DNA of 31,430 bases from Candidatus Diapherotrites archaeon CG11_big_fil_rev_8_21_14_0_20_37_9. GTDB lineage: Archaea; Iainarchaeota; Iainarchaeia; Iainarchaeales; Iainarchaeaceae. A program made the position numbers and the translations under genes. This document shows, piece by piece, positions 7,303-31,147 of the stretch. The stretch spans positions 1 through 31,430 of the forward strand of contig PCWY01000022.1 of the NCBI GenBank assembly GCA_002762975.1. The letters run 5' to 3'. The stretch's first letter is position 1. The number at the start of each line of letters is the position of its first letter. Under the pieces are notes generated by a model. It saw nothing but the letters and a program-made list of their open reading frames with translations, had not been told where the DNA came from and did not search any database.

Positions 7303-7358
7303 TAAGAATAGTAAATTTTCCTTTAATTTAAACCTTTCCTGCTTGTTTTAGCGATACT

Positions 7359-7368
7359 TATTTAAATT
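7359..7368 (+). promoter_or_regulatory. Putative TATA box of the leu/ilv leader transcript
   Basis: TTTAAATT at 7361-7368, starting 28 nt before ATG 7389; spacing fits an archaeal leaderless start. Confidence 0.55.
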
Positions 7369-7388
7369 TCTAGGACTTAATTATTAAC

Positions 7389-7457
7389 ATGAATTTTAAT
7401 GCAAGAATAAGGAAATTAGGCATTTTGCTTGTCCTTGTACTTGTATTGCTAGCTTAA
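7389..7457 (+). CDS. Putative Leu/Val/Ile-sensing leader peptide MNFNARIRKLGILLVLVLVLLA
   Basis: 22 codons with 7 Leu, 3 Val and 2 Ile; 11 of the last 13 are branched-chain. Lies directly upstream of leuA-ilvB-ilvN-ilvC-leuB. Confidence 0.8.
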   Translation: MNFNARIRKLGILLVLVLVLLA

Positions 7458-7530
7458 GCACCCGCAAAAATTTTCGACTTCTGCGGGGTGCGATTCCAAA
7501 AACACAGAAGTCTTTATAGTAAAGAAGGAG
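7458..7530 (+). promoter_or_regulatory. Attenuator-like alternative hairpins of the leu/ilv leader
   Basis: gcacccgca (7458-7466) with tgcggggtgc (7482-7491) excludes gacttctg (7476-7483) with cagaagtc (7505-7512), which is followed by ttta and then aaggag (7525-7530). Confidence 0.65.
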
Positions 7531-7558
7531 AAATGAAAAAAAAAGAAAAGTGAATTTA

Positions 7559-9109
7559 ATGGAAAAAAAAGTAATTAGAATTTTTGACACAACGCTTCGT
7601 GACGGTGAACAAAGTCCGGGCGCGACACTTTCGCATAAAGAAAAAATTTTAATTGCACAGCAACTTGAACGCCTTAATGTTGATATTATTGAAGCTGGTT
7701 TTCCTGTTGCCTCAAAAGATGATTTTAAAGCAGTGAATGAAATCGCAAAAATACTAAAAAAAAGTATTGTTTGTGCTCTTGCAAGATGCAAAAAAGAGGA
7801 TATTGATGTTGCTGCAAAAGCACTTGAGCCTGCAAAGAAAAAAAGGATTCATGTATTCCTTGCAACATCCCCAATCCATATGAAGTACAAGCTCAAGATG
7901 GATGAATCGCAGGTTCTTGAAGAGGCAGAGAAATGGGTTAAGTATGCAAAGCAGTTTGCTGAGGATATTGAATTTTCTCCTGAAGATGCCGGACGATCAA
8001 ATCCTGAATTTCTTTACAAGGTTCTTAGTGTTGCAATAAAAGCAGGCGCAACAACCCTCAATATACCTGATACTGTTGGTTACACTGAACCTGCAGAGTA
8101 CGGAAAATTAATTAAAGGAATAATTGAAAATACTCCTGGATATCATAAAGGAATTATAATTTCCACGCATTGCCATGATGATCTTGGTTTGAGTGTCGCA
8201 AACAGCCTTGCCGCAATTGATGCAGGCGCGACACAGGTTGAGGGTACAATAAATGGTATTGGTGAAAGAGCAGGAAACACTGCGCTTGAAGAGGTAATAA
8301 TGAACCTTCATTCAAGAGAAAATTATTTCAATGCAACAACCAACATTAATCTTTCAGAAATTTACAATACAAGTAGGATGGTTTCATCTTTTACTTCTCT
8401 TGTGGTTCAGCCTAATAAGGCAATTGTTGGAAGGAATGCGTTTGCGCACGAAGCAGGTATTCATCAGCATGGGATTCTTGCAAACAGGGAAGTTTATGAA
8501 ATAATGAATCCAAAAACAATTGGAAAGGAAACTGAACTTGTTATTGGCAAACATTCAGGAAAAGCAGCTATTAATGATTTTTTAAAAAAGAATGGCTATG
8601 ATTTAAACGAACCTGATGTTGCAGAAGTAACTGAAAGGGTTAAGGCTCTTGCGGATAAGAAAAAAATTATTTTTGATGAAGATGTAATTGCAATTGCAAA
8701 CAGCATTACAAACAGCCTTGAACCTGAAACGGTTTTTGTAAAACTCGAAGAAATAATTATTAATACAGGAAATAAAATGAAACCAACTGCAACTGTGAAG
8801 CTCAGTTATCTTTCACATGAAAAAACAGCAGTTGCTTCAGGAGTTGGACCTGTTGATGCAATGGCAAAAGCAATAAGCTCCGCGCTTGGGGAAAAATTTG
8901 AATTAAAAGAATACAATCTGAAAGCAATAACAGGCGGGACTGATGCGCTTGCTGATGTCACTATTGTGGTTTCAAATAAGGGTGGAAAAATTTTTAGTGC
9001 TGAATCACTGAATGAGGACATTACAATGGCTTCTGCTGAGGCTCTGATAAAGGGTATTAATAAAGCAATTGCGTTTGAAAAAAATGAAAAGGGAGATGAG
9101 TCAAAATGA
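7559..9109 (+). CDS. leuA: 2-isopropylmalate synthase
   Basis: [38 protein letters not shown] and a C-terminal regulatory domain with G.GPVDA. Start is GTG 7550 or ATG 7559. Confidence 0.93.
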
Positions 9110-10800
9110 ACGGTGCGCAACAATTTCTTAAATCTTTGAGGAAAAACAAAGTAGAACATGCTTTCGGCATTCCTGGAGGAGTGCTAATTCCATTCTATGA
9201 TGAATTGTATAAGGATAACAGCGGGCTTAAACATATTCTTGTAAGGCATGAGCAAGCAGGAGCCCACATGGCTGAGGGTTATGCAAAAGTATCCGGAAAA
9301 GTAGGCACATGCATTGGAACATCAGGACCTGGTGCCACAAATCTTGTTACAGGTATTGCGGATGCGTTTATGGATTCTGTGCCAATTGTTGCGATTGGCG
9401 GACAAGTTGCTACATCTCTTATAGGAAAGGACGCTTTTCAGGAAGCAGATATGATGGGAATTACGAATCCAATTACAAAGCATAATTTCCAGATAAGAAA
9501 TCCGAATAAGATTGAATCTGTTGTTGATGCGGCTTATTTTATTGCTTCCACAAACAGACCCGGTCCGGTTTATATTGATCTTCCTAAAGATACTCAGCAA
9601 AAAGATGTAACTGGTTCTGAAAAGGTAAATTTATCTGGTTACAAAGTTCTTGAAGGTTTTGATAAAGAGGCTGTAAAGGAGGCTGCAAAACTTTTACTTT
9701 CTGCACAAAGACCTGTAATTCTTGTTGGCGGTGGAGCAGTTCATGCGAATTGTTCACAGGAATTAAAGCAGCTTGCTGAAATTTGTATGATTATGGTTGC
9801 AAGTACCAGTCAAGGTAAGGGCGTTTTTGATGAAAGGCATCCGCTTTCAATTGGCATGACAGGAATGCATGGTAAACCGCCTGCTGTTTTTGCAATTCAA
9901 AAAAGTGATGTGCTTTTTACAATTGGAATGCGTTTCGATGATCGTGTTACAGGACAATTGAATTCTTTTGCACCAGAAGCAAAGGTTATTCATATTGAAA
10001 TTGATCCTAGTGAGATTCACAAAAACAGAACTGCTAACATCCCTATTCTTGGTGATGCAAAAGATGTTCTTACTGAATTAGTTATTGTTATAAAAAAAAT
10101 GCAATGGAAGAACACTGCTTGGTTGGATAAACTGAAATTATTGAAGAAAGAATACCAGGATGATAATCTTGATATTAATACTGAGCCGATTGATCCGAGA
10201 AAATTGATGTTCGAGCTTCAGAAAGTAATTGATGATGACACTATTGTTGCAACAGGTGTCGGCGAGCATCAAATGGATGTTGCGCATTTCATTAAGTTTG
10301 CAAAACCAAGAAAATTCATTACTTCAGGCGGTCTTGGAACAATGGGTTTTGGTTTTCCTGCAGCAATAGGCGCGAAAGTTGCGATGCCAAAAAATGATGT
10401 AATTAATGTTGATGGTGATGGTAGCTTTATGATGACAATGCAGGAACTTGCCACAGTAAAGGTCAATGATATCAAGGTTACTAATATTATAATGAATAAT
10501 GGTTACCTTGGAATGGTAAGAAGTTGGCATGATCTTTTCTATGAAGGTAGGAGAAGCCAGGTTCATCTTGGAAAAATACCTGATTTTGAAAAGCTTGCAA
10601 ATGCATTTTCGCTTGAGGGCATTACTGTTGAAAGGCCATCTGAAATAGGAGATGCATTTAAAAGAGCGCTTGCAAGTGATGGTACTTCTATAGTGAATGT
10701 GCATGTTAAAGAGGATGCAATTGTATTACCTATAGTTCCTGCAGGTGCAAGCAACAGCAAGATGATTGGAGATATGATTCCAAAGGATTATTTTGAATGA
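9106..10800 (+). CDS. ilvB: Acetolactate synthase large subunit
   Basis: FGIPGG, RHEQAGAHMAEGYA, SGPGATN, GQV, TSGGLGTMGFG and the ThDP motif GDGSF...NN. ATGA overlap with leuA. Confidence 0.95.
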   Translation: MNGAQQFLKSLRKNKVEHAFGIPGGVLIPFYDELYKDNSGLKHILVRHEQAGAHMAEGYAKVSGKVGTCIGTSGPGATNLVTGIADAFMDSVPIVAIGGQVATSLIGKDAFQEADMMGITNPITKHNFQIRNPNKIESVVDAAYFIASTNRPGPVYIDLPKDTQQKDVTGSEKVNLSGYKVLEGFDKEAVKEAAKLLLSAQRPVILVGGGAVHANCSQELKQLAEICMIMVASTSQGKGVFDERHPLSIGMTGMHGKPPAVFAIQKSDVLFTIGMRFDDRVTGQLNSFAPEAKVIHIEIDPSEIHKNRTANIPILGDAKDVLTELVIVIKKMQWKNTAWLDKLKLLKKEYQDDNLDINTEPIDPRKLMFELQKVIDDDTIVATGVGEHQMDVAHFIKFAKPRKFITSGGLGTMGFGFPAAIGAKVAMPKNDVINVDGDGSFMMTMQELATVKVNDIKVTNIIMNNGYLGMVRSWHDLFYEGRRSQVHLGKIPDFEKLANAFSLEGITVERPSEIGDAFKRALASDGTSIVNVHVKEDAIVLPIVPAGASNSKMIGDMIPKDYFE

Positions 10801-11276
10801 ATGGGGGTGCATGGGTTATGGAAAAATATATTATAAAATTTCTTGCAGTAAATTCAAGAGGAGTAATTGCACGGCTTTCTGCTCTTATTGCAAGAAAAGG
10901 TTTCAATATTGAGTCTTTTTGTGCAGGCCATCATATCAAAGATGGTGAAAGTTCTATTGTAATAACTTTTTCAGGGTCTGAGGGAGATGTTCAGCAGGCT
11001 GTTGCACAGATGAGCAAACTGATTAACATTATCAGTGCTGAATATTATCACGAAAAGGATGTTGTACAGCGTGAGCTTCTTCTTGTGAAACTCAAAAATG
11101 TTTCAGGAGTAAAAGAAAAGGCTCAGGCTCTTGGCGGCAGGCTTATGAAAGAATATAGTGGATTTGTTGATTTTGAATTTGTCGATAAACCAAACAGTAT
11201 TGAAAAAAATGTCGCTGAATTAAAGAAAAATTTTACTGTGATTGATATTTCAAGGAGCGGTAACAATGCGATTTAA
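10797..11276 (+). CDS. ilvN: Acetolactate synthase small (ACT regulatory) subunit
   Basis: N..GVIARLSALIARKGFNIES ACT domain, QMSKLINII, QRELLLVK and terminal SRSG. Alternative start ATG 10818. Confidence 0.85.
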   Translation: MNGGAWVMEKYIIKFLAVNSRGVIARLSALIARKGFNIESFCAGHHIKDGESSIVITFSGSEGDVQQAVAQMSKLINIISAEYYHEKDVVQRELLLVKLKNVSGVKEKAQALGGRLMKEYSGFVDFEFVDKPNSIEKNVAELKKNFTVIDISRSGNNAI

Positions 11277-11321
11277 TAAAAATTTGCATTGGAAAATATT
11301 ATTGATTAATGGGGTGATGAT

Positions 11322-12305
11322 GTGAAATTTTTGAAGGACAAAGATGCTGATGTTAATTCAGTAAAGGGAAAAACTATTGCAGTTATTGGTTATGGTGCAC
11401 AGGGTGCTGCTCAGGCAATGTGTATGAAAGATTCTGGTCTTAACGTAATAATTGGATTGAGGCAGGGCAGCGAGAAATGGAAAACTGCAGAACAGTATGG
11501 TTTTGAGGTTCTTGAAACAGCAAAAGCTGCTGAGAAAGCCGATATAATCCATGTTCTTATGCCTGATGAAAAGCAGGCTGATGCATTTGAAAATGACATT
11601 AAACCTCATTTAACAAAAGGAAAAACTCTTTCATTTTCACATGGATTTAACATTTGTTACAAGTTCATTGTTCCTCCAACAGACATTGATGTTATAATGG
11701 TTGCGCCGAAAGCCCCTGGCACAGAAGAAAGAAAACAGTTTTTGCAGGGCTTTGGTGTTCCTGGTCTTATTTCAATAAGGCAGGATGTTTCAGGCAATGC
11801 AAAAAAAACCGCGCTTGCAATGGCAAAAGCATGTGGTTTCACAAGGGCAGGAGTAATTGAATGCACTTTTGAACAGGAAACATTTGAGGATCTTTTCGGA
11901 GAACAGGCTGTTCTTTGTGGAGGGCTTTCTGAATTGATTACTACAGGCTTTGAAACTCTTGTTGAGGCGGGTTATCCTGCTGAAATGGCTTATTTTGAAT
12001 GCCTTCATGAAACAAAACTCATTGTTGACCTTATTTATGAAGGCGGAATGACTCATATGTGGGATGTTGTTTCAAATACTGCTGAATACGGTGGCAGGAC
12101 AAGAGGAAAGGCAATTATAGATCCTGAAGTAAAGCAGAGAATGAAGAAGCTTCTTGCTGATGTTGAATCAGGGAAATTTGCCAATGAGTGGATTGCCGAG
12201 TATAAAAGCGGATTGAAGAATTTCAAAAAACTCAGGGAAGAGCAGAATAACCATGAGATTGAAATTGTTGGCAAAGAGATTAGGGATCTTTTCAAAAAAG
12301 AGTGA
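11322..12305 (+). CDS. ilvC: Ketol-acid reductoisomerase
   Basis: [48 protein letters not shown] and [17 protein letters not shown] precedes the GTG start. Confidence 0.96.
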
Positions 12306-13447
12306 TTTCATTGGTTAAATATAAAATTGCGCTGATGCCCGGAGACGGCATCGGTCCCGAAATAATTTCTGAGGGCAGAAAAGTAATTGATGCTGTTTCA
12401 GAGCTCAATGGATTTGAAATTGATTGGGTTGAGTATAATAATGGCGCCGAGAAATATCTCAAAACTGGTGAATTAATTACTGAAGAAACCCTTGCGGAAA
12501 TTAAGGGTTCATGTAAAGCAATTTATCTTGGCGCGCTTGGAGATCCAAGGTGCAAGCCAGGTATTTTAGAAAAAGGAATTCTTCTCAAAACAAGGTTTTA
12601 TTTTGACCAGTATGTTAACTTAAGGCCAATTAAATTACTTGATGGTGTTGATTGTCCGCTTAAGGGTAAGGGTCCAAAGGATATTGATTTTACTGTTGTA
12701 CGCGAAAACACTGAGGACTTTTATGTTGGCATAGGTAATCGTGTTGGTAAAGGAAATTCAAAGCAGGGGCTTGAAGTTCTTCGTGAATTGTATAAAGTTA
12801 AATTTGGTCTTGATATTGAAAGCACGGATGAAATTGCTTATCAGATTGGTGTGATGAGCAAATCTGGTGCTGATCGCGTGATAAAATATGGGTTTGAACT
12901 TGCAAAAAAAGAAAATGTTGAAACAGTTTATTTTGTTGACAAGGCAAATGTGCTTTCCGACATTTATGGTTTTTGGCGTGAAAGGGTTGAGTTGCAGGCA
13001 AAGAATTATCCTGGCATAAAACCTGAGTTCATGTTTGTTGACGCAATTACCATGTGGTTTGTGAAAAATCCTGAATGGTTTAAGGTTGTCACAACTCCGA
13101 ACATGTTTGGTGATATTATAACTGATTTAGGCGCAATGATTCAGGGTGGTTTAGGTTTGGCGCCTGGCGGAAACATTAATCCTGATGGAATTTCAATGTT
13201 CGAACCAATTCATGGTTCTGCTCCAAAGTATAAGGGTCTTGATACTGCAAATCCACTTGCAACAATATGGGCAGGTGCATTAATGCTTGAGGAAATAGGT
13301 GAACCAGAATCAAAGGAGCTTATTGTGAATGCAATTCAGGAAATTTTGAAAGAAGGGAAAGTAAAAACAAAAGACCTTGGTGGCACGCATAAATGCAGTG
13401 AAATGGGTTCTGCTGTTGCTGAAAAGTGCAAAGAGCTTTTTCAGTAG
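12302..13447 (+). CDS. leuB: 3-isopropylmalate dehydrogenase (isocitrate/isopropylmalate dehydrogenase family)
   Basis: [33 protein letters not shown] and FEPIHGSAP, plus operon context. Confidence 0.85.
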
Positions 13448-13509
13448 TTTATTTTTCTGAACTTATTTTTGGAGATAAAAATAATAATTCAACTTAACCT
13501 AATTCTTTA

Positions 13510-14385
13510 ATGTTATTTGATCCCTTAATTATTGCTTTTATTGTAGCTTTTATTGGATTTATTTTTCAGAAAAAATTTGGTTTTGATCAAAAATCACTGG
13601 CAAATATCCTTATTTACATTACTGGTCCGGCGCTTACATTTGCAGCAATTTATTCAAAAGAAATTATTCTTCATGAATTTTTTGTAATAGGGGTTTCGGC
13701 ATTTGCTGTGATGTTTGCATCAGGTATTTTTGCATATTTGCTTTATCGTGTACTTGGTTACACTGGAACGGGAATGATTCTTCCTGCAATGTTCATGAAT
13801 TCTGCCTATCTTGGTTTTCCTGTTGCGCTTTTTGCTTTTGGAGAAGAAGGTTTACAATATGCAATAATTTATGATTTATTTGAAACACTTTTGATGTTTT
13901 CGCTTGGGGTTTTTCTTGTTCAAAGTGCATTGAAAAAAAAGCGGGAAAAACTTGCAGGAATTTTAAAATTACCTTTGATTTATGCCATTTCATTTGCAAT
14001 TATTTTTAATTTTGCACAAATTCAGATTCCTTCAGTTCTTGTTGAATCATTGAACCTATTGGGTCTTGCTACAATACCTCTTGCTTTACTTTCACTTGGG
14101 GGAAGACTTGCCCAACTTAAAATTGGTTCATTAAAAATACCGGTTGCTGCGGTTTTTTCAAGGCTTGCAATAGGCGCGGTAATCGGACTTGCTTTTGTAT
14201 ATTTATTTAATCTCTCTGGAATTCTTGCTTCAATTGTTCTTTTGCTTTCGGTGATGCCTCCTGCGGTTAACAGTTATGTGCTTAATGAAAAGTTTTCAAA
14301 TGAAGCTGATAATGCAGCAACTGCTGTTTTAATTGGAACTATTTTGAGTGTGATTCCTATAGGCATTATTCTTTTTTTCCATTAA
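13510..14385 (+). CDS. AEC (auxin efflux carrier / malate permease-like) family transporter
   Basis: About 10 hydrophobic segments; NSAYLGFPV and SVMPPAVNSY motifs. Confidence 0.85.
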   Translation: MLFDPLIIAFIVAFIGFIFQKKFGFDQKSLANILIYITGPALTFAAIYSKEIILHEFFVIGVSAFAVMFASGIFAYLLYRVLGYTGTGMILPAMFMNSAYLGFPVALFAFGEEGLQYAIIYDLFETLLMFSLGVFLVQSALKKKREKLAGILKLPLIYAISFAIIFNFAQIQIPSVLVESLNLLGLATIPLALLSLGGRLAQLKIGSLKIPVAAVFSRLAIGAVIGLAFVYLFNLSGILASIVLLLSVMPPAVNSYVLNEKFSNEADNAATAVLIGTILSVIPIGIILFFH

Positions 14386-14439
14386 TTTAAATTTTTTGTG
14401 TAAACAAAAAGAATATAATGTACAAAATGCATTAGTTGA

Positions 14440-14841
14440 ATGTTCATTATGTCTGCACAACAAACAAATACTTCAAATAATTCAGCTGATGTAAATTCTG
14501 ATTCAAATTTAATTGCGGCGCTTGCTTACCTGCCTGTTCTTCAGCCGTTTATTCCAATAGTTACTTTGCTTTTGAGGCCTAATGATAAATTTGTAAAGTT
14601 TCATTCAATTCAGGCGCTTGGACTTTTTCTTGCAATATTTATTGGCGGGTTGATTTTCAGCATAATTGCAATCATATTTGCTGTGGCAACCCTTGGTCTT
14701 GGCATATTTTTGCTTTTGCCGATATTTGCAGTATGCGGGCTTGCTGAACTCATTTTAAGCATTATTTTGATGATTAAGGCATACCAAGGGGAAAAGTACA
14801 AGCTTCCTGTAATTGGCGAATGGGCTGAAACTTTCAAGTAA
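14440..14841 (+). CDS. DUF4870-like small membrane protein
   Basis: AALAYL, FVKFHSIQAL and KAYQGEKYKLPVIGEWAE pattern. Alternative start 14449. Confidence 0.8.
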   Translation: MFIMSAQQTNTSNNSADVNSDSNLIAALAYLPVLQPFIPIVTLLLRPNDKFVKFHSIQALGLFLAIFIGGLIFSIIAIIFAVATLGLGIFLLLPIFAVCGLAELILSIILMIKAYQGEKYKLPVIGEWAETFK

Positions 14842-14856
14842 ATTTAACAAAAACCT

Positions 14857-14864
14857 TTTATATT
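14857..14864 (+). promoter_or_regulatory. Putative TATA box of the pheA leader transcript
   Basis: TTTTATAT preceded by A-rich BRE-like caaaaacc; starts 29 nt before ATG 14886. Confidence 0.6.
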
Positions 14865-14885
14865 TCCTGCAACCCATATATTATA

Positions 14886-14978
14886 ATGTTATACGCTACA
14901 ATTGCAAAGAATGATTCAGCTGTTTCAAAAGTAGCTTCGGCATTTGCTTTTTATTTCTATTTCTTTTTCTTTAAATAA
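14886..14978 (+). CDS. Putative Phe/Tyr-sensing leader peptide MLYATIAKNDSAVSKVASAFAFYFYFFFFK
   Basis: 30 codons ending FAFYFYFFFFK (7 Phe and 3 Tyr in total), 102 nt upstream of pheA. Confidence 0.8.
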   Translation: MLYATIAKNDSAVSKVASAFAFYFYFFFFK

Positions 14979-14979
14979 C

Positions 14980-15029
14980 ACCCTTTCTGACCTTTGGCAA
15001 GAAGGATTGGGTTTCCAAAAAGTTTTTTT
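14980..15029 (+). promoter_or_regulatory. Attenuator-like hairpins and T7 tract after the Phe/Tyr leader
   Basis: Imperfect stem accc/gggt plus tttct/agaag (14980-15012) competes with ttgg-gttt-ccaa (15007-15018). T7 at 15023-15029. Confidence 0.5.
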
Positions 15030-15080
15030 AAGTTAAATTAAATTAGGGTTGAAAATAAATTTTGAAAATTGGTGAGGTTT

Positions 15081-16148
15081 ATGAGTTTGGAGAAAACAAG
15101 AAAAAAAATTGATGAAGTTGATGATGAAATAGTTGATTTATTGAATAAGCGCCTTGAACTCGCTATTGATGTTGGCAAAGAAAAAAAAGAACACAGCGAA
15201 ATTGTTTATGATCCTGTAAGGGAAGAACAGATAATTGAAAAGCTTGCAAAAAAAAGCAAGGGTTTTCCAAAAGAGGGCATTGAGTCAGTATTCAGAGAAA
15301 TTTTTAGTGTTTCAAGAAAGGCACAGTCCCCTATAAAGATTGCTTACCTTGGGCCTGAAACAACATTCACGCATTCAGCTGCATTAAAACAATTTGGTAC
15401 GCAGGCGGAGTATAAATCAAAAGACTCTATTAATGATGTTTTTCTTTCCGTTGAAAAAGGCGAAACCGATTTTGGTGTTGTTCCTGTAGAAAATAGCATG
15501 GAAGGTTCAGTCAATAGAACCTACGATAGGCTCATTACATCGGAACTTAATATTGTTGGTGAAATCTCATTGAAAGTAAACCATAATCTTCTTTCTAAAT
15601 ACAGGTTAAGAGATATCACAAAGATCTACAGTCATCCTATGGCGATTGCTCAATGCAGGGAATGGATTTCGAAGAATTTGCCAAAAGCGGAAATATTTGA
15701 AGTGAGTTCAACTGCGGCAAGTGTTGAAGCAGGCACTTTGTATTTAAATTCTGCTGGCATTGGTTCTGAGCTTGCTGCACAAAAATTTGGTTTGCAGGTT
15801 GTTGAAAAAAATATTCAGGATTTAAGCTCCAATTATACAAGATTCCTTGTGCTTGGCAGGGTGATGCCTAAAAAATCTAGTAAAAGCAAAACAAGTATTG
15901 TTTTTTCGGCAAAGCATGAACCAGGTTCTTTGTTTAATGCACTTGAGCCTCTTAAAAAGCATATGATTAACATGACTAAAATAGAGTCAAGACCGACAAG
16001 GATGAGAAACTGGGAGTATGTGTTCTTTGTTGATTTCCAGGGGTATGTTGAGGATGAAAATGTGGTAAAAGCACTTGGGGAAATGAAGAAAAATACTGCC
16101 CTACTGAAAATACTCGGGTCTTATCCTGAAAAAGCGAGGTTTGAATAA
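15081..16148 (+). CDS. pheA: Bifunctional chorismate mutase / prephenate dehydratase with ACT domain
   Basis: N-terminal R.KIDEVD..IV.LLNKR (AroQ), LGPETTFT, VPVENSMEGSV, NYTRFLVL, INMTKIESRP and LGSY. GGTGAGG RBS precedes ATG 15081. Confidence 0.95.
   Translation: MSLEKTRKKIDEVDDEIVDLLNKRLELAIDVGKEKKEHSEIVYDPVREEQIIEKLAKKSKGFPKEGIESVFREIFSVSRKAQSPIKIAYLGPETTFTHSAALKQFGTQAEYKSKDSINDVFLSVEKGETDFGVVPVENSMEGSVNRTYDRLITSELNIVGEISLKVNHNLLSKYRLRDITKIYSHPMAIAQCREWISKNLPKAEIFEVSSTAASVEAGTLYLNSAGIGSELAAQKFGLQVVEKNIQDLSSNYTRFLVLGRVMPKKSSKSKTSIVFSAKHEPGSLFNALEPLKKHMINMTKIESRPTRMRNWEYVFFVDFQGYVEDENVVKALGEMKKNTALLKILGSYPEKARFE
16128..16148 (+). repeat. Direct repeat copy 1 (pheA 3' end)
   Basis: gaaaaagcgaggtttgaataa, identical to 17138-17158. 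Confidence 0.95.
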
Positions 16149-16260: not shown

Positions 16261-17091
16261 ATGGTTATGGAAGAAACAAATGCATTGGCAATATTTCAAG
16301 GCAAGAAAATAAGGAGAACCATGCATGATAGCGAATGGTGGTTTTCAATCGAGGATATTGTAAAAGCTCTAACTGATTCTCAGGATCCAAAACAATATAT
16401 CAATAAATTGAGAAAAAGGGATGAACCCCTTTCAAAAGGGTGGGTACAATTTGTACATACCCTTCCTGTTTTAACTTCTGGGGGAAAGCAAAAAGTGAAT
16501 TGTTCTAATACTAAAGGTATTTTTAGAATAATCCAGTCAATTCCCTCTCCAAAAGCCGAACCATTCAAACTCTGGCTTGCTAAGGTAGGGTATGAAAGAG
16601 TAGAGGAAATTCAAAATCCTGAACTTGCTCAAAAAAGAATGAAAGAATTGTACAAACAAAAAGGTTATTCTGATGACTGGGTTGAAAAAAGAGTAAGAGG
16701 AATTGCAATTAGGGATGAACTAACTGATGAGTGGAAAAAAAGAGATGTAAAAACAAATAAAGAATATGCTATTCTTACTGCTAAAATTTCAAAAGAAACG
16801 TTCGGCATGACTCCTGGTGAATACAAGAAATTCAAGGGTTTGAAGAACGAAAACCTAAGGGATTATATGGATGATTTAGAACTCATTTTTTCAATGTTTG
16901 GAGAAAGAGTTACAACCGAAATAACCAAAAATCAAGACACCAAAGGGTTTGATGAATGTAAGGGTGCGGCAAAAAAAGGCGGAAAAGTAGCAGGAAATGC
17001 AAGAAAAGATGCTGAAAAACAGATTGGAAAACCAATTTCAAAAAAAGATAATTATAAGCAATTAACGGAAAAAAAGAAACTTAAAAGGTAA
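16261..17091 (+). CDS. Bro-N domain protein (phage antirepressor-like DNA-binding protein)
   Basis: F.GKKIRR....EWWFSI.DIV..LTDS.DP.QY, and GIFRIIQSIPSPKAEPFKLWLA.VG.ER.EEI.NPEL. Confidence 0.85.
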   Translation: MVMEETNALAIFQGKKIRRTMHDSEWWFSIEDIVKALTDSQDPKQYINKLRKRDEPLSKGWVQFVHTLPVLTSGGKQKVNCSNTKGIFRIIQSIPSPKAEPFKLWLAKVGYERVEEIQNPELAQKRMKELYKQKGYSDDWVEKRVRGIAIRDELTDEWKKRDVKTNKEYAILTAKISKETFGMTPGEYKKFKGLKNENLRDYMDDLELIFSMFGERVTTEITKNQDTKGFDECKGAAKKGGKVAGNARKDAEKQIGKPISKKDNYKQLTEKKKLKR

Positions 17092-21971: not shown

Positions 21972-22029
21972 TTTTTGTAAAGGGCAATTATAACTAACAT
22001 TTAAATACTTTAGGTAATGGTATTATTGT

Positions 22030-22077
22030 ATGGCTAGAAGGGATTTACTTTGGCTCAAATCAATTTGTTTTGAGTAG
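22030..22077 (+). other. Candidate leaderless uORF MARRDLLWLKSICFE (one Trp codon)
   Basis: ATG lies 30 nt after the start of TTTAAATA (22000-22007), upstream of tRNA-Trp and trpE. Confidence 0.3.
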
Positions 22078-22165: not shown

Positions 22166-22238
22166 GGGGATATAGCATAACCTGGTAGTGTACCTGGCTC
22201 CAGACCAGAGGATGGGGGTTCAAATCCCTCTGTCCCCA
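22166..22238 (+). tRNA. tRNA-Trp (anticodon CCA), intron-less, CCA tail not encoded
   Basis: Acceptor ggggata/tgtcccc plus discriminator A, D-arm gcat/gtgt, anticodon arm ctgg-ct-CCA-ga-ccag (CCA at 22200-22202), T-arm ggggg-ttcaaat-ccctc. Confidence 0.93.
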
Positions 22239-22240
22239 CA

Positions 22241-25604: not shown

Positions 25605-26989
25605 ATTTTCTTGAAAAAATTGCGGAAAGCACCGAAGCACAAGTTATAATGAAGAAAAAAATTCTTCCATTAGACAAAATAATGCGAAATGTGAAAAAGG
25701 GAAACCACGCTTTTTTGAATACAATTAAGGGAAAAAATAAGTTGTCTGTTATAGCCGAATTCAAAAAAAGTTCTCCTTCCGCAGGAAAAATTAACTCTTC
25801 CGCAAATTTGAAACAATTCATAAAACTTTATGATGAATATGCTGACTGCATATCCATTCTTACTGAAGAAAAATATTTTTCAGGGAAAATAAGTTATATT
25901 GCCGATGCTAAAAAAATTACTAAAAATCCTTTGCTTAGAAAGGATTTCATTATTGATGAATACCAGATTTATGAAGCAAGGTACTTTGGCGCGGATGCTG
26001 TTCTTTTAATTGAAAAACTTTTATCCAAAAAAATGCTTGAATATTTTATTAGCATAGCTGATTCAATTGGAATGGATTGCCTTGTGGAATGCCATGATAT
26101 ACGCGGACTGAAAAAAGTTCTTGATTCTGGTGCGAAAATTATTGGCATTAATAATAGAAATCTTGAAACTTTTAAAGAGGATTTTGGTAATACTGAAAAA
26201 CTTGTAAAAAAAATTCCTATAAAGAAAAGAAAAGATGTTATAATTGTTTCAGAATCATCAATTGATTCGATTGAAAAAATACGAAAATTACAGGGCAAAG
26301 TTGATGCTGTACTTGTGGGTTCTGCTATAATGTCTGCACCTGTTCCAAGAGTAAAGCTCAGGGAAATTAATGGAAAAACTCTTACAAAGATATGCGGAAT
26401 TACAACTGAAAGTGATGCAAAACAAGCTGTTTCTCTTGGTGCTGATTTTATTGGACTTAATTTTTATTCAAAAAGCCCAAGGTTCGTTTCGGTAAAAAAA
26501 GCCAAAATAATTGCCAATGCGGTTAAAGGAAAGTGTGTTTTGGTAGGGGTTTTTGTCGATGAATCTTCTGTAAAAGTAAAGCGAATTGCAAAAACAGTTG
26601 GATTGAATATGTTGCAGTTTTCCGGGAACGAATCTGAAAGTTATGTTAAAAAATTTAAAATTCCTTCAATAAAGGCAGTTCGTTTGAGCAAAAAAAATGG
26701 TATTAAAAAGTATTTTAAATACAAAACAAATTTTTTGTTAATTGATGCATTTGAAAAAGGACTTTTCGGCGGAACCGGTAAAACAGTTTCCAAAAACCTT
26801 TTGAATAAGTCTATTTTCAGTACGGGAAAAGTTGCTTTGTCAGGCGGATTAACCCCTGAAAATATAACTGATTTGGTAAGGCAGTATAATCCTGTTTTTG
26901 TGGATGTTTGTTCAGGAGTTGAATCATTTCCCGGAAAGAAAAGCTTTTCTAAAATGAAATCGTTTATTAGATATACACAGGTGATTTAA
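25601..26989 (+). CDS. trpCF: Fused indole-3-glycerol-phosphate synthase / phosphoribosylanthranilate isomerase
   Basis: [34 protein letters not shown] and GINNRNL, then KICGIT, GLNFY.KSPR, D.F..G.FGGTG, LSGGL.PEN and DVCSGVE in one 462-aa frame. Confidence 0.93.
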
Positions 26990-28179
26990 TGATTGGTAGA
27001 TTTGGCGAATATGGCGGACAGTTTGTTCCTGAAACACTTATGCCTGCAGTTAAAGAACTTGAAGTTGCATTTGAAAAATATAAAAATGATTCTGAATTTA
27101 ATGCCGAATTTGAATCTTTGTTAAAAAATTTTGTAGGCAGACCTACAGCACTTACTTTTGCCAGGCATTTAAGCAAAAAACTTAATTGTAAAGTTTATTT
27201 GAAACGCGAAGATCTTGCACATACTGGTGCGCATAAAATTAACAATGCGCTTGGTCAGGCATTGCTTGCAAAAAAAATGGGTAAAAAAAGAGTTATTGCA
27301 GAAACAGGTGCAGGTCAACATGGTGTTGCAACTGCAATTGCGTGTGCAATGCTTGGAATTGAATGTGAAATTTATATGGGTGAAGTTGATATTGAAAGAC
27401 AGAAACCAAATGTTTTCAGAATGAAACTTGCTGGTGCAAAGGTGACGCCTGTTGCAAGCGGAACAAAAACTCTGAAAGATGCTATTAATGAAGCTTTGCG
27501 CGACTGGACTGCAAATGTGAATACAACACATTATCTTCTTGGTTCGGTTCTTGGTCCGCATCCTTATCCTGAAATGGTTGCACATTTCCAAAGTGTTATC
27601 GGAAAGGAAGCAAGGGCACAGATACTTGAAAGAGAAGGCCAATTACCGAAAGCTATTATTGCTTGTGTTGGCGGAGGCAGTAATGCAATAGGAATTTTCA
27701 GCGGTTTTTTGAAAGATAAAGAAGTTGAACTTATAGGAGTTGAGGCAGGTGGGCTTGGAATTAAAAGTGGTAAGCACGCAGCCAGATTTGCAGATCCTAA
27801 ATTGGGGCGAAAGGGCGTGCTCCATGGAACAATGACTTATGTTCTCCAAGATAAATTCGGGCAAATTTATAATACTCATTCAGTTTCAGCTGGACTTGAT
27901 TATAGTGCGGTTGGTCCTGAGCATGCTAATCTGAAGGATATTGGTAGGGCAAGTTATAGTTATGCAACCGATTCTGAAGCACTTGCTGCATTCAAATTGC
28001 TTTCTGAAAAAGAAGGAATTATTCCTGCATTAGAATCAAGTCACGCAGTTGCCTACCTTTTGAAATATGCAAAAAAACTTTCTCCTGAGGATATTGTAAT
28101 TGTAAACATTTCAGGAAGAGGAGATAAGGATCTGGATATTGTTTTAAAGGAAATGGGGGGTAAAAATGAGGCATTTTAA
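26989..28179 (+). CDS. trpB: Tryptophan synthase beta chain (TrpB1-type)
   Basis: [62 protein letters not shown] and SGRGDKD. Confidence 0.97.
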
Positions 28180-28573
28180 AAAACTCCCAACTCAGGAAGT
28201 AGTGGATTTGACTGTTACAACAAAAAGTTTGTGTACTCGGACTCAGGGTTATTTTTTAACTGCACTTAAGCAAGGAAAAATACATGAAATTAAGGCAAAC
28301 ATTAGGGGAAAGCCTACTAGGCTTTTTGTCAAAGGAATTGAAGAAGCAAATGGGAAAGTAGTATATAATCATACTCCTGTTGGTAGTGAAGTAATTGGGT
28401 ATGCTGCAGGGTATAACTCAGAAACTCACCAATATTGTCGTCTTGGGGTAGAAGATGGCAAAATTTTTGTTTATAATGCTTATAATCTGGATGCAAGTAC
28501 GGGCAAACCAGGTTTTGAAGCAAGTCATAAAGTTAAAACTGCTTTTAAAAATCACGGTGAAACTCATGAATAG
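28166..28573 (+). CDS. Uncharacterised 135-aa protein inserted between trpB and trpA
   Basis: Overlaps trpB by 14 nt and trpA by 8 nt, and carries the GGTGA RBS of trpA. No recognised family. Confidence 0.7.
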
Positions 28574-29366
28574 ATACAAAATTACTTTTGAAAAATTAAG
28601 GCAAAAAAAACAAGGCGCTTTTATTCCATTTGTTGTTTTGGGGGACCCTGATTTTGAAACTTCGAAAAAGATTCTTGAAAAAATGGTAAAACATGCTGAT
28701 TGCATTGAACTAGGTTTTCCTTTTTCGGATCCGATTGCTGATGGAAAAAGAATTCAGGCAGCGGATGAACGTGCGATTAATGCTGGAATTAACCCTGATA
28801 AGTGCTTTGAACTTATAAAACATGTAAGGTCAATCAATAAGGAAATACCTATAGGCCTTTTGATTTATTATAATATAGTTTTTACTTCAGGAATAAATAA
28901 TTTTTTGGCAAAAACAAAAAAAGCAGGGGTTGATGCAATTCTTGTTGCTGACATGCCATTGGAAGAATCAAGTGAATTTAATTCTAAATGTATTTCTTCT
29001 GGTATTGAACAGGTTTTTATTGCAGCGCCAACAACAGGCAAGGAAAGGCTTGCCAAAATTATTTCCAAAAGTACTGCCTTTGTATATGTGGTAGGTGTTC
29101 TGGGGGTTACAGGAGAAAGGAAAAATGTTGATTCTTCTGCTGGAAGAATAGTTTCTTCGATAAAAAATATTTCAAAAATACCTGCGTGTGTGGGTTTTGG
29201 AATTTCAAAACCTGAACATGTAAAAAAAATTATTGGAGAAGGTGCAGATGGAGCAATAGTGGGATCTGCAGTTGAGGCAATAATTGAAGAAAATCTTTGT
29301 AATAAAAAAATCATGCTTGAAAAACTTGATGCTTTTTTTAAGGCAATAAAAAATGCGACGTGTTGA
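28566..29366 (+). CDS. trpA: Tryptophan synthase alpha chain
   Basis: FIPFVVLGDPD, IELGFPFSDPIADG..IQ, LIYYN, GVTG, VGFGIS and ADGAIVGSA. Start moved to ATG 28566 (GGTGA RBS). Confidence 0.95.
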   Translation: MNRYKITFEKLRQKKQGAFIPFVVLGDPDFETSKKILEKMVKHADCIELGFPFSDPIADGKRIQAADERAINAGINPDKCFELIKHVRSINKEIPIGLLIYYNIVFTSGINNFLAKTKKAGVDAILVADMPLEESSEFNSKCISSGIEQVFIAAPTTGKERLAKIISKSTAFVYVVGVLGVTGERKNVDSSAGRIVSSIKNISKIPACVGFGISKPEHVKKIIGEGADGAIVGSAVEAIIEENLCNKKIMLEKLDAFFKAIKNATC

Positions 29367-30631
29367 AAATGGATTTTGTTGAAATCAAAAAAATTGGTTC
29401 CTTATCAGCGGATATTGTAGCACCTCCTTCAAAAGCACATACTTTGAGAGCGCTTTTCATAAGCGCGCTTGCTGAAGGAAAAAGTACGCTTAGAAATGCC
29501 CTGAATGCTGAGGATCAGCAGATTGCAGCAAAAGCACTAAATGATCTTGGGGCAAAAATAGTTTTTAATGGAAAAGATTACCTTGTGCAGGGTGCTGAAG
29601 GGCAACTTTCTTCACCAAAGGAAATTATTTATACTGCTAATTCAGGTGTTACAACAAGATTTTTGATTCCAATTGCAGGAATAGCAAAAGGCAATACTAT
29701 TATTGATGGCTCTGAAAGAATGCGGGAAAGACCAATTAAAGAATTACTTGAATCTGCATCAAAAATTGGACTTAAAACAGAATCAAAAGAAGGAAAACTT
29801 CCAGTAAAAGTGATTGGTAAAACTCTTATCGGAGGCAAAACAGAAATTGATGCTTCTGAAAGCTCACAGTTTTTAAGCGCCCTGCTTATTGCAGGCCCAT
29901 TGACAGAAAATGGTATGTCTGTTTCTGTAAAGGGTGAAATGCGATCAAAACCCTATGTGGATATTACTCTTGATTGCATGGCTGATTTTGGAGTTAAAAC
30001 TGATAGGGAAGGATATGAAAGTTTTTTTGTGAAAAGCGGACAAAGTTACAAAGGAAGGGATTATTTAATTGAAGGAGACTACAGTTCTTCCTCTTATTTA
30101 TTTGCAGCAGCAGCAATTACAGGCGGAATTGTAAAAGTAAGGAATCTCAATAAAAATTCTGCACAAGGAGATAAAGAATTTATTTATTTTTTGGAAAAAA
30201 TGGGATGCAATGTTAATTTTTCAGGAGACTCTATTGTTGTTGAAGGAAATTCGCTCAATGCAATTGATGTTGACATGTCTTCCTGTCCTGATGTTGTGCC
30301 CACGCTTGCAGTTGTTGCCGCATTTGCAGAGGGTAAAACAAGAATTAGTAACATTTCTCATCTTTCTGCAAAGGAAAGTAATAGGATTGAAACAACCGCT
30401 GAAAACCTACGCAGGTGCGGGATAAAAGCAATTCCTGGAAAGGATTTTCTTGAAATAATTGGTGGCAAACCCCATGGCGCGGTTATTGAACCGTATAATG
30501 ATCACCGTATTGCAATGGCCTTTTCAATTATGGGGCTTCAAACAGGTGAAATGAGAATCAATAATCCAAATTGTGTTGGAAAAAGTTTTCCTGATTTTTT
30601 TTCAGTATTGAAAAAGTTTTATGGTGATTAA
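29360..30631 (+). CDS. aroA: 3-phosphoshikimate 1-carboxyvinyltransferase (EPSP synthase)
   Basis: PPSKAHTLRA, NSG.T.RF, RERP, SSQFLSALL, SKPYVDIT, EGDYSSSSY, KESNRI and DHRIAM...V.KSFPDF. Confidence 0.95.
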   Translation: MLKMDFVEIKKIGSLSADIVAPPSKAHTLRALFISALAEGKSTLRNALNAEDQQIAAKALNDLGAKIVFNGKDYLVQGAEGQLSSPKEIIYTANSGVTTRFLIPIAGIAKGNTIIDGSERMRERPIKELLESASKIGLKTESKEGKLPVKVIGKTLIGGKTEIDASESSQFLSALLIAGPLTENGMSVSVKGEMRSKPYVDITLDCMADFGVKTDREGYESFFVKSGQSYKGRDYLIEGDYSSSSYLFAAAAITGGIVKVRNLNKNSAQGDKEFIYFLEKMGCNVNFSGDSIVVEGNSLNAIDVDMSSCPDVVPTLAVVAAFAEGKTRISNISHLSAKESNRIETTAENLRRCGIKAIPGKDFLEIIGGKPHGAVIEPYNDHRIAMAFSIMGLQTGEMRINNPNCVGKSFPDFFSVLKKFYGD

Positions 30632-31147
30632 TTGAATATTGCACTTATTGGTTACAGGGCTACTGGCAAAACAACAATCGGAAAAAAACTTGCTAAAAGA
30701 ATGAATATGAAATTTTTGGATACTGATAAGATTATTGAAAAGAAAATAGGTAAAAAAATAAAAGATTTTTTTGATGAGCACGGAGAAAAGGAATTCAGGG
30801 AAATTGAATCAACTGTTCTTAAAGAAATTTGTTTGGGGGATGAACAATGTATTTCTTGCGGTGGGGGAATAGTTATTCTTCCTGAAAACAGGGATTTGCT
30901 GAAAAAAAAATGTGTTGTTGTATTACTTGAATCAACTCCTCAGGCTATTTACATGAGAACAAAAAAGGATAGTAAAAGACCCGCATTAACTTCGTTCGAT
31001 AAATTTGATGAAATCGTAAATGTTCTTGAGGAGCGTAAGGATAAGTATGAATCAATTGCAAATGTCCGTGCAGACACTTCCAGCATATCCATTGAAAAGG
31101 TTGTTCAAGTTATAATTGATAAACTTGTTGAGGGGGGTTACATTTGA
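30632..31147 (+). CDS. aroK: Shikimate kinase, bacterial P-loop (AroK/AroL) type
   Basis: IGYRATGKTTIG, DTD..IE, FREIE, GGG, RP.L and R...Y. GGTGA RBS precedes the TTG start. Confidence 0.9.
   Translation: MNIALIGYRATGKTTIGKKLAKRMNMKFLDTDKIIEKKIGKKIKDFFDEHGEKEFREIESTVLKEICLGDEQCISCGGGIVILPENRDLLKKKCVVVLLESTPQAIYMRTKKDSKRPALTSFDKFDEIVNVLEERKDKYESIANVRADTSSISIEKVVQVIIDKLVEGGYI

Follow-up and report, generated by a model that had tools for sequence, protein, structure and literature searches.

Leader-peptide attenuation is a textbook example of what the coupling of transcription to translation brings about in bacteria, and the leader peptides leuL, ilvL, ivbL and pheL belong to the transcription attenuators of the enterobacterial leu, ilvGMEDA, ilvBN and pheA operons, respectively. 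Factor-dependent leader-peptide attenuation is known in bacteria as well, where the tnaC–tnaA and mgtL–mgtA systems work with Rho. The principle of leader-peptide attenuation is described in PMC3082878 and also in the introductory part of bioRxiv 10.1101/834739. Leaderless variants have been described in two bacterial groups: in the polycysteine leaderless small open reading frames (ORFs) of mycobacteria, the codon run pairs with the downstream Shine–Dalgarno (SD) sequence (bioRxiv 10.1101/834739), and 14 leaderless leader peptides have been predicted in Deinococcus deserti (PMC4007540). For Archaea, a transcriptome paper of 2014 stated that attenuators had no direct experimental support (PMC4247193), and our literature search turned up no archaeal leader-peptide attenuator. 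Here we analyze the window, i.e., the whole stretch of 31,430 nucleotides (nt) from Candidatus Diapherotrites archaeon CG11_big_fil_rev_8_21_14_0_20_37_9 (assembly GCA_002762975.1, contig PCWY01000022.1), in which a Leu/Val-rich small ORF precedes the leuA operon and a Phe/Tyr-rich small ORF precedes pheA. As judged from the sequences of these loci and their relatives, the two ORFs are probably amino-acid-sensing cis-regulatory elements. A first-pass annotation of the window had reported two cognate leader ORFs with downstream hairpins and a T tract, an observation that our analysis partly confirms.

Cognate leader ORFs ahead of leuA and pheA

The Leu/Val leader ORF (7389–7457, + strand, as for all individual features below) comprises 22 codons and ends with the tail LLVLVLVLLA, followed by a TAA stop codon (7455–7457). 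Its promoter (7351–7366) consists of GCGATAC, which resembles a B recognition element (BRE), and the TATA box TATTTAAA at 7359–7366; the leader ATG at 7389 is 30 nt from the start of the TATA box. The next gene, leuA (7559–9109), is the first of the leuA-ilvB-ilvN-ilvC-leuB operon (7559–13447). The Phe/Tyr leader ORF (14886–14978) has 30 codons, the tail AFAFYFYFFFFK and a TAA stop codon at 14976–14978. Its TATA box, TTTTATAT (14856–14863), is located 30 nt before the leader ATG, a spacing that is kept in relatives. The first gene behind this aromatic leader is pheA (15081–16148; chorismate mutase/prephenate dehydratase by NCBIfam match), which is preceded by the strong SD sequence GGTGAGG. 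The claims of the first-pass annotation that both short ORFs carry a cognate C-terminal run, and that each is preceded by a TATA box at a fixed distance from the ATG, thus hold on both sides.

As a chance baseline, we used all ATG-started ORFs of 10–45 codons that lie outside the long ORFs of the genome (n = 1715). At least 80% of Leu, Val or Ile among the last ten residues is found in 1 of these 1715 intergenic small ORFs, the ORF before leuA. A content of at least 60% Phe, Tyr or Trp over the same length is found in five, including the ORF before pheA.

Both codon runs are kept in orthologous loci, as the proposal of leader peptides demands. The comparison set consists of related, mostly incomplete metagenome-assembled genomes (MAGs), and a metagenome scan for further relatives added one locus only (L145). 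The Leu/Val leader is present in 28 of 30 leuA loci of the phylum, including all 12 family genomes that have leuA, as an ATG-started ORF of 21–36 codons that ends in a Leu/Val-rich tail a short way ahead of leuA. The last 12 codons of these 28 leaders, all of them distinct, specify 180 Leu, 73 Val and 11 Ile, together 264 of the 336 residues, and draw on all six Leu codons and all four Val codons. The entropy at codon positions 1, 2 and 3 is 1.40, 0.73 and 1.57 bits, respectively; the leader frame is open in all 28, and the +1 frame is interrupted by stop codons in 24. Periodicity of this kind is the signature expected of a translated frame that keeps its amino acid, or the codon family of that amino acid. 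An aromatic leader is found in 21 of 30 related pheA loci, 13 directly before pheA and 8 before a transaldolase-like gene that itself precedes pheA, so that these leaders always head a pheA or tal-pheA unit. In the 13 that directly precede pheA, aromatic residues make up 78% of the last ten codons (61 Phe, 28 Tyr and 12 Trp of 130). Because the codon runs match the product of the operon and are kept in relatives, the leaders look like ribosome-based sensors.

The position of the leaders relative to their promoters is that of leaderless genes. Among 765 likely genes of the genome, TATA-like motifs peak at −29/−30 (37 and 25 occurrences vs a background near 5) and SD-like motifs at −12/−11. The genome thus appears to use both leaderless and SD-led starts, with the leader ORFs in the leaderless register. 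In the archaeal leaderless class of messages, the TATA box is located about 26–30 nt upstream of the start codon and an SD sequence is lacking; both leaders share these features, with the TATA start at −30. Since the promoter-to-ATG spacing equals that of the leaderless class of this genome, the notion of leaderless leader peptides put forward in the first-pass annotation is a sound one. Within the family, an 8-nt TATA box starts 30–31 nt before the leader ATG in 10 of 12 Leu leaders, as part of the element CGAAAnn-TATTTAAA with a CGAAA-like BRE. More distant families have instead an AGTGA motif about 8 nt upstream of the leader ORF. Under either arrangement the leader ORF is, by its motifs, placed for translation.

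The host is a DPANN archaeon of the Iainarchaeota. The assembly (1.13 Mb, 85% complete) encodes TATA-binding protein and ribosomal protein S3Ae, sigma-70 region 2 was not found in it, and archaeal-type genes on the contig encode a KaiC-like ATPase, a CMP kinase and a glutamate dehydrogenase. The nearest relatives of LeuA come from Candidatus Iainarchaeum MAGs (70–72% identity), and the remaining LeuA matches are all bacterial (49–54% identity). It is on these grounds that we place the contig, and they rule out a bacterial origin; no 16S gene is present in the assembly. The nearest relatives of LeuA outside the Iainarchaeota (49–54%) are from Clostridia, Aquificota and Chloroflexota. LeuA is best matched by the bacterial-type model (TIGR00973, 666 bits, vs 415 bits for the archaeal-type model). 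Many biosynthetic genes at 7559–13447 and 26989–31147 likewise match bacterial-type models best (leuA_bact, AroK-type shikimate kinase). These matches are consistent with acquisition of the biosynthetic genes from bacteria. We also considered that the leader was inherited along with the bacterial-type leuA, which is not supported by the 77 nearest bacterial leuA loci: within upstream flanks of at most 2.4 kb, shorter in some loci and not reaching more distant operon heads, no small ORF rich in Leu, Val or Ile was found, apart from two unrelated matches.

NCBIfam matches bear out the structural genes named in the first-pass annotation, namely leuA, ilvB (9106–10800), ilvN (10797–11276), ilvC (11322–12305), leuB (12302–13447) and pheA. 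Two unrelated genes lie between leuB and pheA. An ORF of 276 residues (16261–17091) with no NCBIfam match, which the first-pass annotation had marked as a possible inserted cassette, is located between pheA and split transketolase genes.

RNA structure behind the leader stop codons

Hairpin A of the Leu leader (7458–7491), with arms at 7458–7466 and 7482–7491, starts 1 nt after the stop codon, as the first-pass annotation had described. The corresponding hairpin A' of the aromatic leader (14982–15005; −9.3 kcal/mol) is weak in this window and starts 4 nt after the stop codon, so that the reported 1–2 nt distance applies to the Leu side only. When the 45 nt after the stop codon are folded, each of the 49 leaders (28 Leu and 21 aromatic) has a minimum-energy structure that begins 1–5 nt behind the stop, with a mean z of −2.7 for the Leu and −1.7 for the aromatic leaders relative to mononucleotide shuffles. 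In 47 of the 49 the fold also reaches −8 kcal/mol or lower, and both properties are found together in only 10% of this genome's remaining intergenic small ORFs; the relatives are not independent, and the contrast is therefore not a probability. The Leu hairpin is in addition supported by covariation. In an alignment of 25 Leu sequences, hairpin A is 88% paired, against 38–76% for registers slid by 1–3 columns, and it contains 13 double-change cells vs 6.0 in shuffles (0 of 500 reach 13). These comparisons make hairpin A, as a predicted structure, the second solid element after the ORF.

We note that in family f13 (L104, L106, L096, L097 and others), the last two sense codons of the Leu leader, CTAGGA or CTGGGA, have their complement, TCCTAG or TCCTGG, within the 5' arm of hairpin A, a possible third pairing in competition with hairpin A.

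Downstream lies a candidate hairpin B (7476–7512), in which 7476–7483 would pair with 7505–7512. Its 5' arm falls within the loop and 3' arm of hairpin A. Hairpin B is the predicted fold once the first 12 nt after the stop codon are blocked, which mimics a terminating ribosome (−12.4 kcal/mol here, −10 to −20 kcal/mol in the family), and is 73% paired in register vs 27–48% when slid. At some loci it extends by 3–4 nt into the 3' arm of hairpin A, where the two hairpins would compete. The conserved motif AGAAGTCnTTAnAG (7506–7519) covers the 3' arm of hairpin B and continues beyond it, and is common to the Leu leaders of several families and to some aromatic leaders. The motif AGAAGTCnTTAGA, which holds the 3' arm of hairpin B, is kept even without its 5' partner. 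The AGAAGTC-TTA motif is unique in the genome and hence is not a general genomic element. It was also considered as an internal BRE/TATA promoter, for which its spacing to leuA is inconsistent across families. Likewise set aside was a conserved helix between the ORF tail and the region after hairpin A, which is inconsistent between loci.

The motif is followed by a purine-rich spacer (7520–7558) with an SD-like GAAGGAG at 7524–7530; in relatives, the leuA-side spacers average 66% purine and are 34–213 nt long. A mini-ORF of six codons (MKKKEK, 7533–7553) stands behind this strong SD-like sequence, its end 5 nt upstream of the leuA ATG. Relatives do not keep this mini-ORF; at the same position they have different short ORFs rich in purines, or no ORF.

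The aromatic leader contains, behind hairpin A', an A-run (CCAAAAAG) followed by seven T residues (15015–15029, with T7 at 15023–15029), a candidate archaeal oligo-T terminator within the leader. The T7 is inside the transcription unit and has no stable adjacent hairpin. Four of the five closest relatives of the aromatic leader (L115, L116, L118 and L119) have an A-run and a T-run (T4–T9) after the hairpin, and the fifth (L117) has broken T runs only. Across the genome, the density of T runs of at least seven is seven times higher in the 60 nt that follow a stop codon than it is within genes. Given this enrichment, which matches the use of oligo-T as a terminator signal in other archaea (PMC7515710), oligo-T is probably a terminator signal in this genome too. 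The genome also encodes an ortholog of the termination factor aCPSF1/FttA (839 bits, above the cut-off).

Ribosome position, output and rival explanations

Our reading, towards which the evidence inclines us, if only somewhat, is that each small ORF acts in cis as a leader ORF and signals to its own operon how much charged tRNA is available, by the following steps. Transcription would start at or beside the leader ATG, yielding a leaderless mRNA, and a ribosome would translate the leader with RNA polymerase close by. When Leu/Val-tRNA (or, in the aromatic leader, Phe/Tyr/Trp-tRNA) is scarce, the ribosome would stall in the codon run, 2–11 codons before the stop, and hairpin A would fold; hairpin A folded would correspond to the operon being on. 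When the tRNAs are plentiful, a ribosome at the stop codon would keep the 5' arm of hairpin A open. The freed loop and 3' arm would then pair elsewhere (with hairpin B forming in the Leu leader of the window family) or stay unstructured, and premature termination before the first gene would be favoured. In the aromatic leader, termination could take place at the T7 tract, and aCPSF1/FttA may possibly be involved in both leaders. From sequence comparison we infer that the leaders are translated and that the ribosome stalls on them, and likewise in which direction the switch works and with what output. Premature transcription termination, in particular, is an output that we put forward tentatively, with more doubt than conviction.

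Several observations weigh against these steps, and most of them concern the switch and its output. Folded as single sequences, the leaders of the window are no better than shuffles (z of −1.3 for Leu and +0.4 for Phe), and a scan for bacterial-style terminators gave no site in either leader; the window alone therefore supports the ORFs and not an RNA switch. The covariation of hairpin B does not exceed that of shuffles. Its core abuts rather than overlaps hairpin A, so that the two could coexist as an H-type pseudoknot. Hairpin B is followed in this window by UUUAUAG (nUUA) and not by a U tract; indeed, no T run lies between the Leu leader and leuA in the window, the only candidate being a T4 in the loop of hairpin A. 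Other families have GGUUUU behind hairpin A; if this acted as a terminator, the logic would be inverted. As for the aromatic leader, we know of no requirement for a hairpin in archaeal T-tract termination, and a gating of the T7 by RNA folding is accordingly not evident. What remains of the competing downstream hairpin with a T tract, as proposed in the first-pass annotation, is the complementarity of hairpin B on the Leu side and the T7 at 15023–15029 on the Phe side; a T tract after hairpin B and a convincing hairpin next to the T7 are both missing. Hairpin switching at a T tract is consequently a weak candidate for the output: hairpin B has neither covariation nor a T tract, and the T7 of the aromatic leader has no stable hairpin beside it.

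The same ribosome sensor could instead act on translation initiation of leuA and pheA or on message stability, perhaps through the AGAAGUC-UUAGA motif and the SD-like purine tract after hairpin A. We regard this as unlikely, while noting that it would suit a Leu leader that has no T tract, and spacers with a high purine content and no apparent structure. The conserved motif is located, in family f13, just upstream of the leuA SD, and the leaderless Cys-rich leader ORF of mycobacteria acts translationally (bioRxiv 10.1101/834739). The distances in the window family speak against such an output, since the leader stop is 76–185 nt from the leuA start and the motif lies about 50 nt after the stop, i.e., tens to more than 100 nt from the start. 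Two pairings that could connect the leader to the leuA start also failed: when the codon run is paired with the leuA start region, duplex energies do not surpass those of shuffles (mean z −0.42, 28 loci), and no conserved helix masking the leuA SD was found in related loci.

Two further explanations do without a sensor. The products of the ORFs might be small hydrophobic or aromatic peptides with a function in trans, such as membrane micropeptides, in which case the location before the operons would have nothing to do with sensing. The Leu/Val peptide, in which a hydrophobic run comes after a polar or basic N-terminus, does resemble a short membrane anchor, as the first-pass annotation had pointed out. 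The run, however, is just about 10–12 residues long and nearly pure Leu and Val, and a run of Phe, Tyr and Trp is atypical of a membrane segment. Moreover, the residues of each peptide correspond to what its operon produces, twice independently and across families, and what is conserved is the codon run and the stop-to-hairpin spacing, the N-terminal halves being poorly conserved; we consider a trans-acting peptide very improbable. Alternatively, the conserved element could be a non-coding RNA or a DNA operator, e.g., for an Lrp-type regulator on the inverted repeat GACTTCTG...CAGAAGTC, with an open frame that is incidental. Conservation of hairpin B without covariation is what a protein-binding inverted repeat would give, and the nucleotides around the stop codon (TTGCTAGCTTAA) are kept even at synonymous sites. 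An incidental frame would nevertheless have to account for the three-base periodicity, for the constant spacing between TATA box and ATG, for a frame open in every Leu leader when the +1 frame is mostly stopped, and for a cognate amino-acid identity maintained through many synonymous codons; the spacing of the half-sites also varies. An operator or non-coding RNA is, in our estimate, hardly probable at all.

Besides the Leu/Val and aromatic leaders, which share downstream elements, the contig of the window contains a third candidate, for Trp. Convincing leaders for further amino acids were not found among the intergenic small ORFs of the genome, with the exception of this single-Trp ORF. It encodes MARRDLLWLKSICFE (22030–22077; 15 codons), begins 30 nt downstream of the first base of a TATA box (22000–22007), and lies upstream of tRNA-Trp and the trp operon. 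The tRNA-Trp gene (anticodon CCA, 22166–22239) ends 88 nt before trpE (22327) on the same strand, and is followed in the window by a T5 run and a hairpin. A tRNA-Trp gene precedes trpE in 9 of 22 trpE loci, from five families of the order. Related ORFs with a single invariant Trp codon (e.g., MARRDLLWSNFQ, MKRRDSLWQLSFGFE and MPSGLLWLLE) are found in seven of the eight related loci that keep tRNA-Trp before trpE, and most loci have T4–T6 runs after the ORF. The nucleotides GATTTACTTTGG of these ORFs are almost invariant, which suggests a constraint at the RNA level.

A more general scheme would join the three loci. In Iainarchaeota, leaderless leader peptides would control bacterial-type branched-chain, aromatic and tryptophan operons through a shared, non-bacterial platform, consisting of the stop-abutting hairpin, an A-rich linker and the AGAAGUC-UUAGA motif, in which ribosome position gates aCPSF1/FttA-dependent or oligo-U termination, and which evolved apart from the bacterial terminator-hairpin design. 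We think it quite unlikely that this scheme holds as a whole; if it does, it would amount to ribosome-mediated attenuation in Archaea.

Relation to described leader-peptide systems

If the leaders act as sensors, archaea would use ribosome position for gene control, and the leaders would offer short, defined sequences for reporter tests in tractable archaea and a means to examine the response of archaeal polymerase and FttA to RNA structure and to a ribosome that trails behind. Their evolutionary bearing lies in the combination of bacterial-type regulated genes with an archaeal promoter and a leaderless start, the nearest bacterial loci being without such a leader in the flanks covered.

Among described systems, the enterobacterial attenuators share the basic design with the two leaders, namely a short ORF that heads the transcript and carries a codon run for the amino acids that the operon itself makes. 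The likeness extends to a hairpin at the place where a terminating ribosome would melt the RNA and to a second complementary segment downstream, all directly before the first biosynthetic gene. Unlike the enterobacterial systems, the leaders belong to an archaeal host with a BRE/TATA promoter and start leaderless rather than behind an SD sequence. The defining feature of the enterobacterial class, a GC hairpin with a U tract, was not found by the terminator scan before leuA or pheA, and the nearest bacterial leuA loci have no such leader. The Rfam leader families for Leu, Phe, Trp, His and Thr gave no match at the gathering score in the window, and none at E ≤ 10 in either leader region.

With the mycobacterial and Deinococcus leaders, the two ORFs have the leaderless start in common. 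The pairing of codon run and SD region that distinguishes the mycobacterial Cys leader is not supported here, and mycobacteria and Deinococcus are bacteria with sigma-type promoters. The tnaC and mgtL systems differ in their factor: the archaeal counterpart would be aCPSF1/FttA, which is unrelated to Rho and whose binding site is not definable from these sequences. An aCPSF1/FttA-dependent attenuation analogous to the Rho systems is thus speculative. It is nonetheless a factor-dependent logic of this kind that fits the Leu leader, because the Leu leader has no T tract: as in the tnaC and mgtL systems, a leader ORF and RNA structure could together set the access of a termination factor to the nascent RNA, with no need for an intrinsic terminator.

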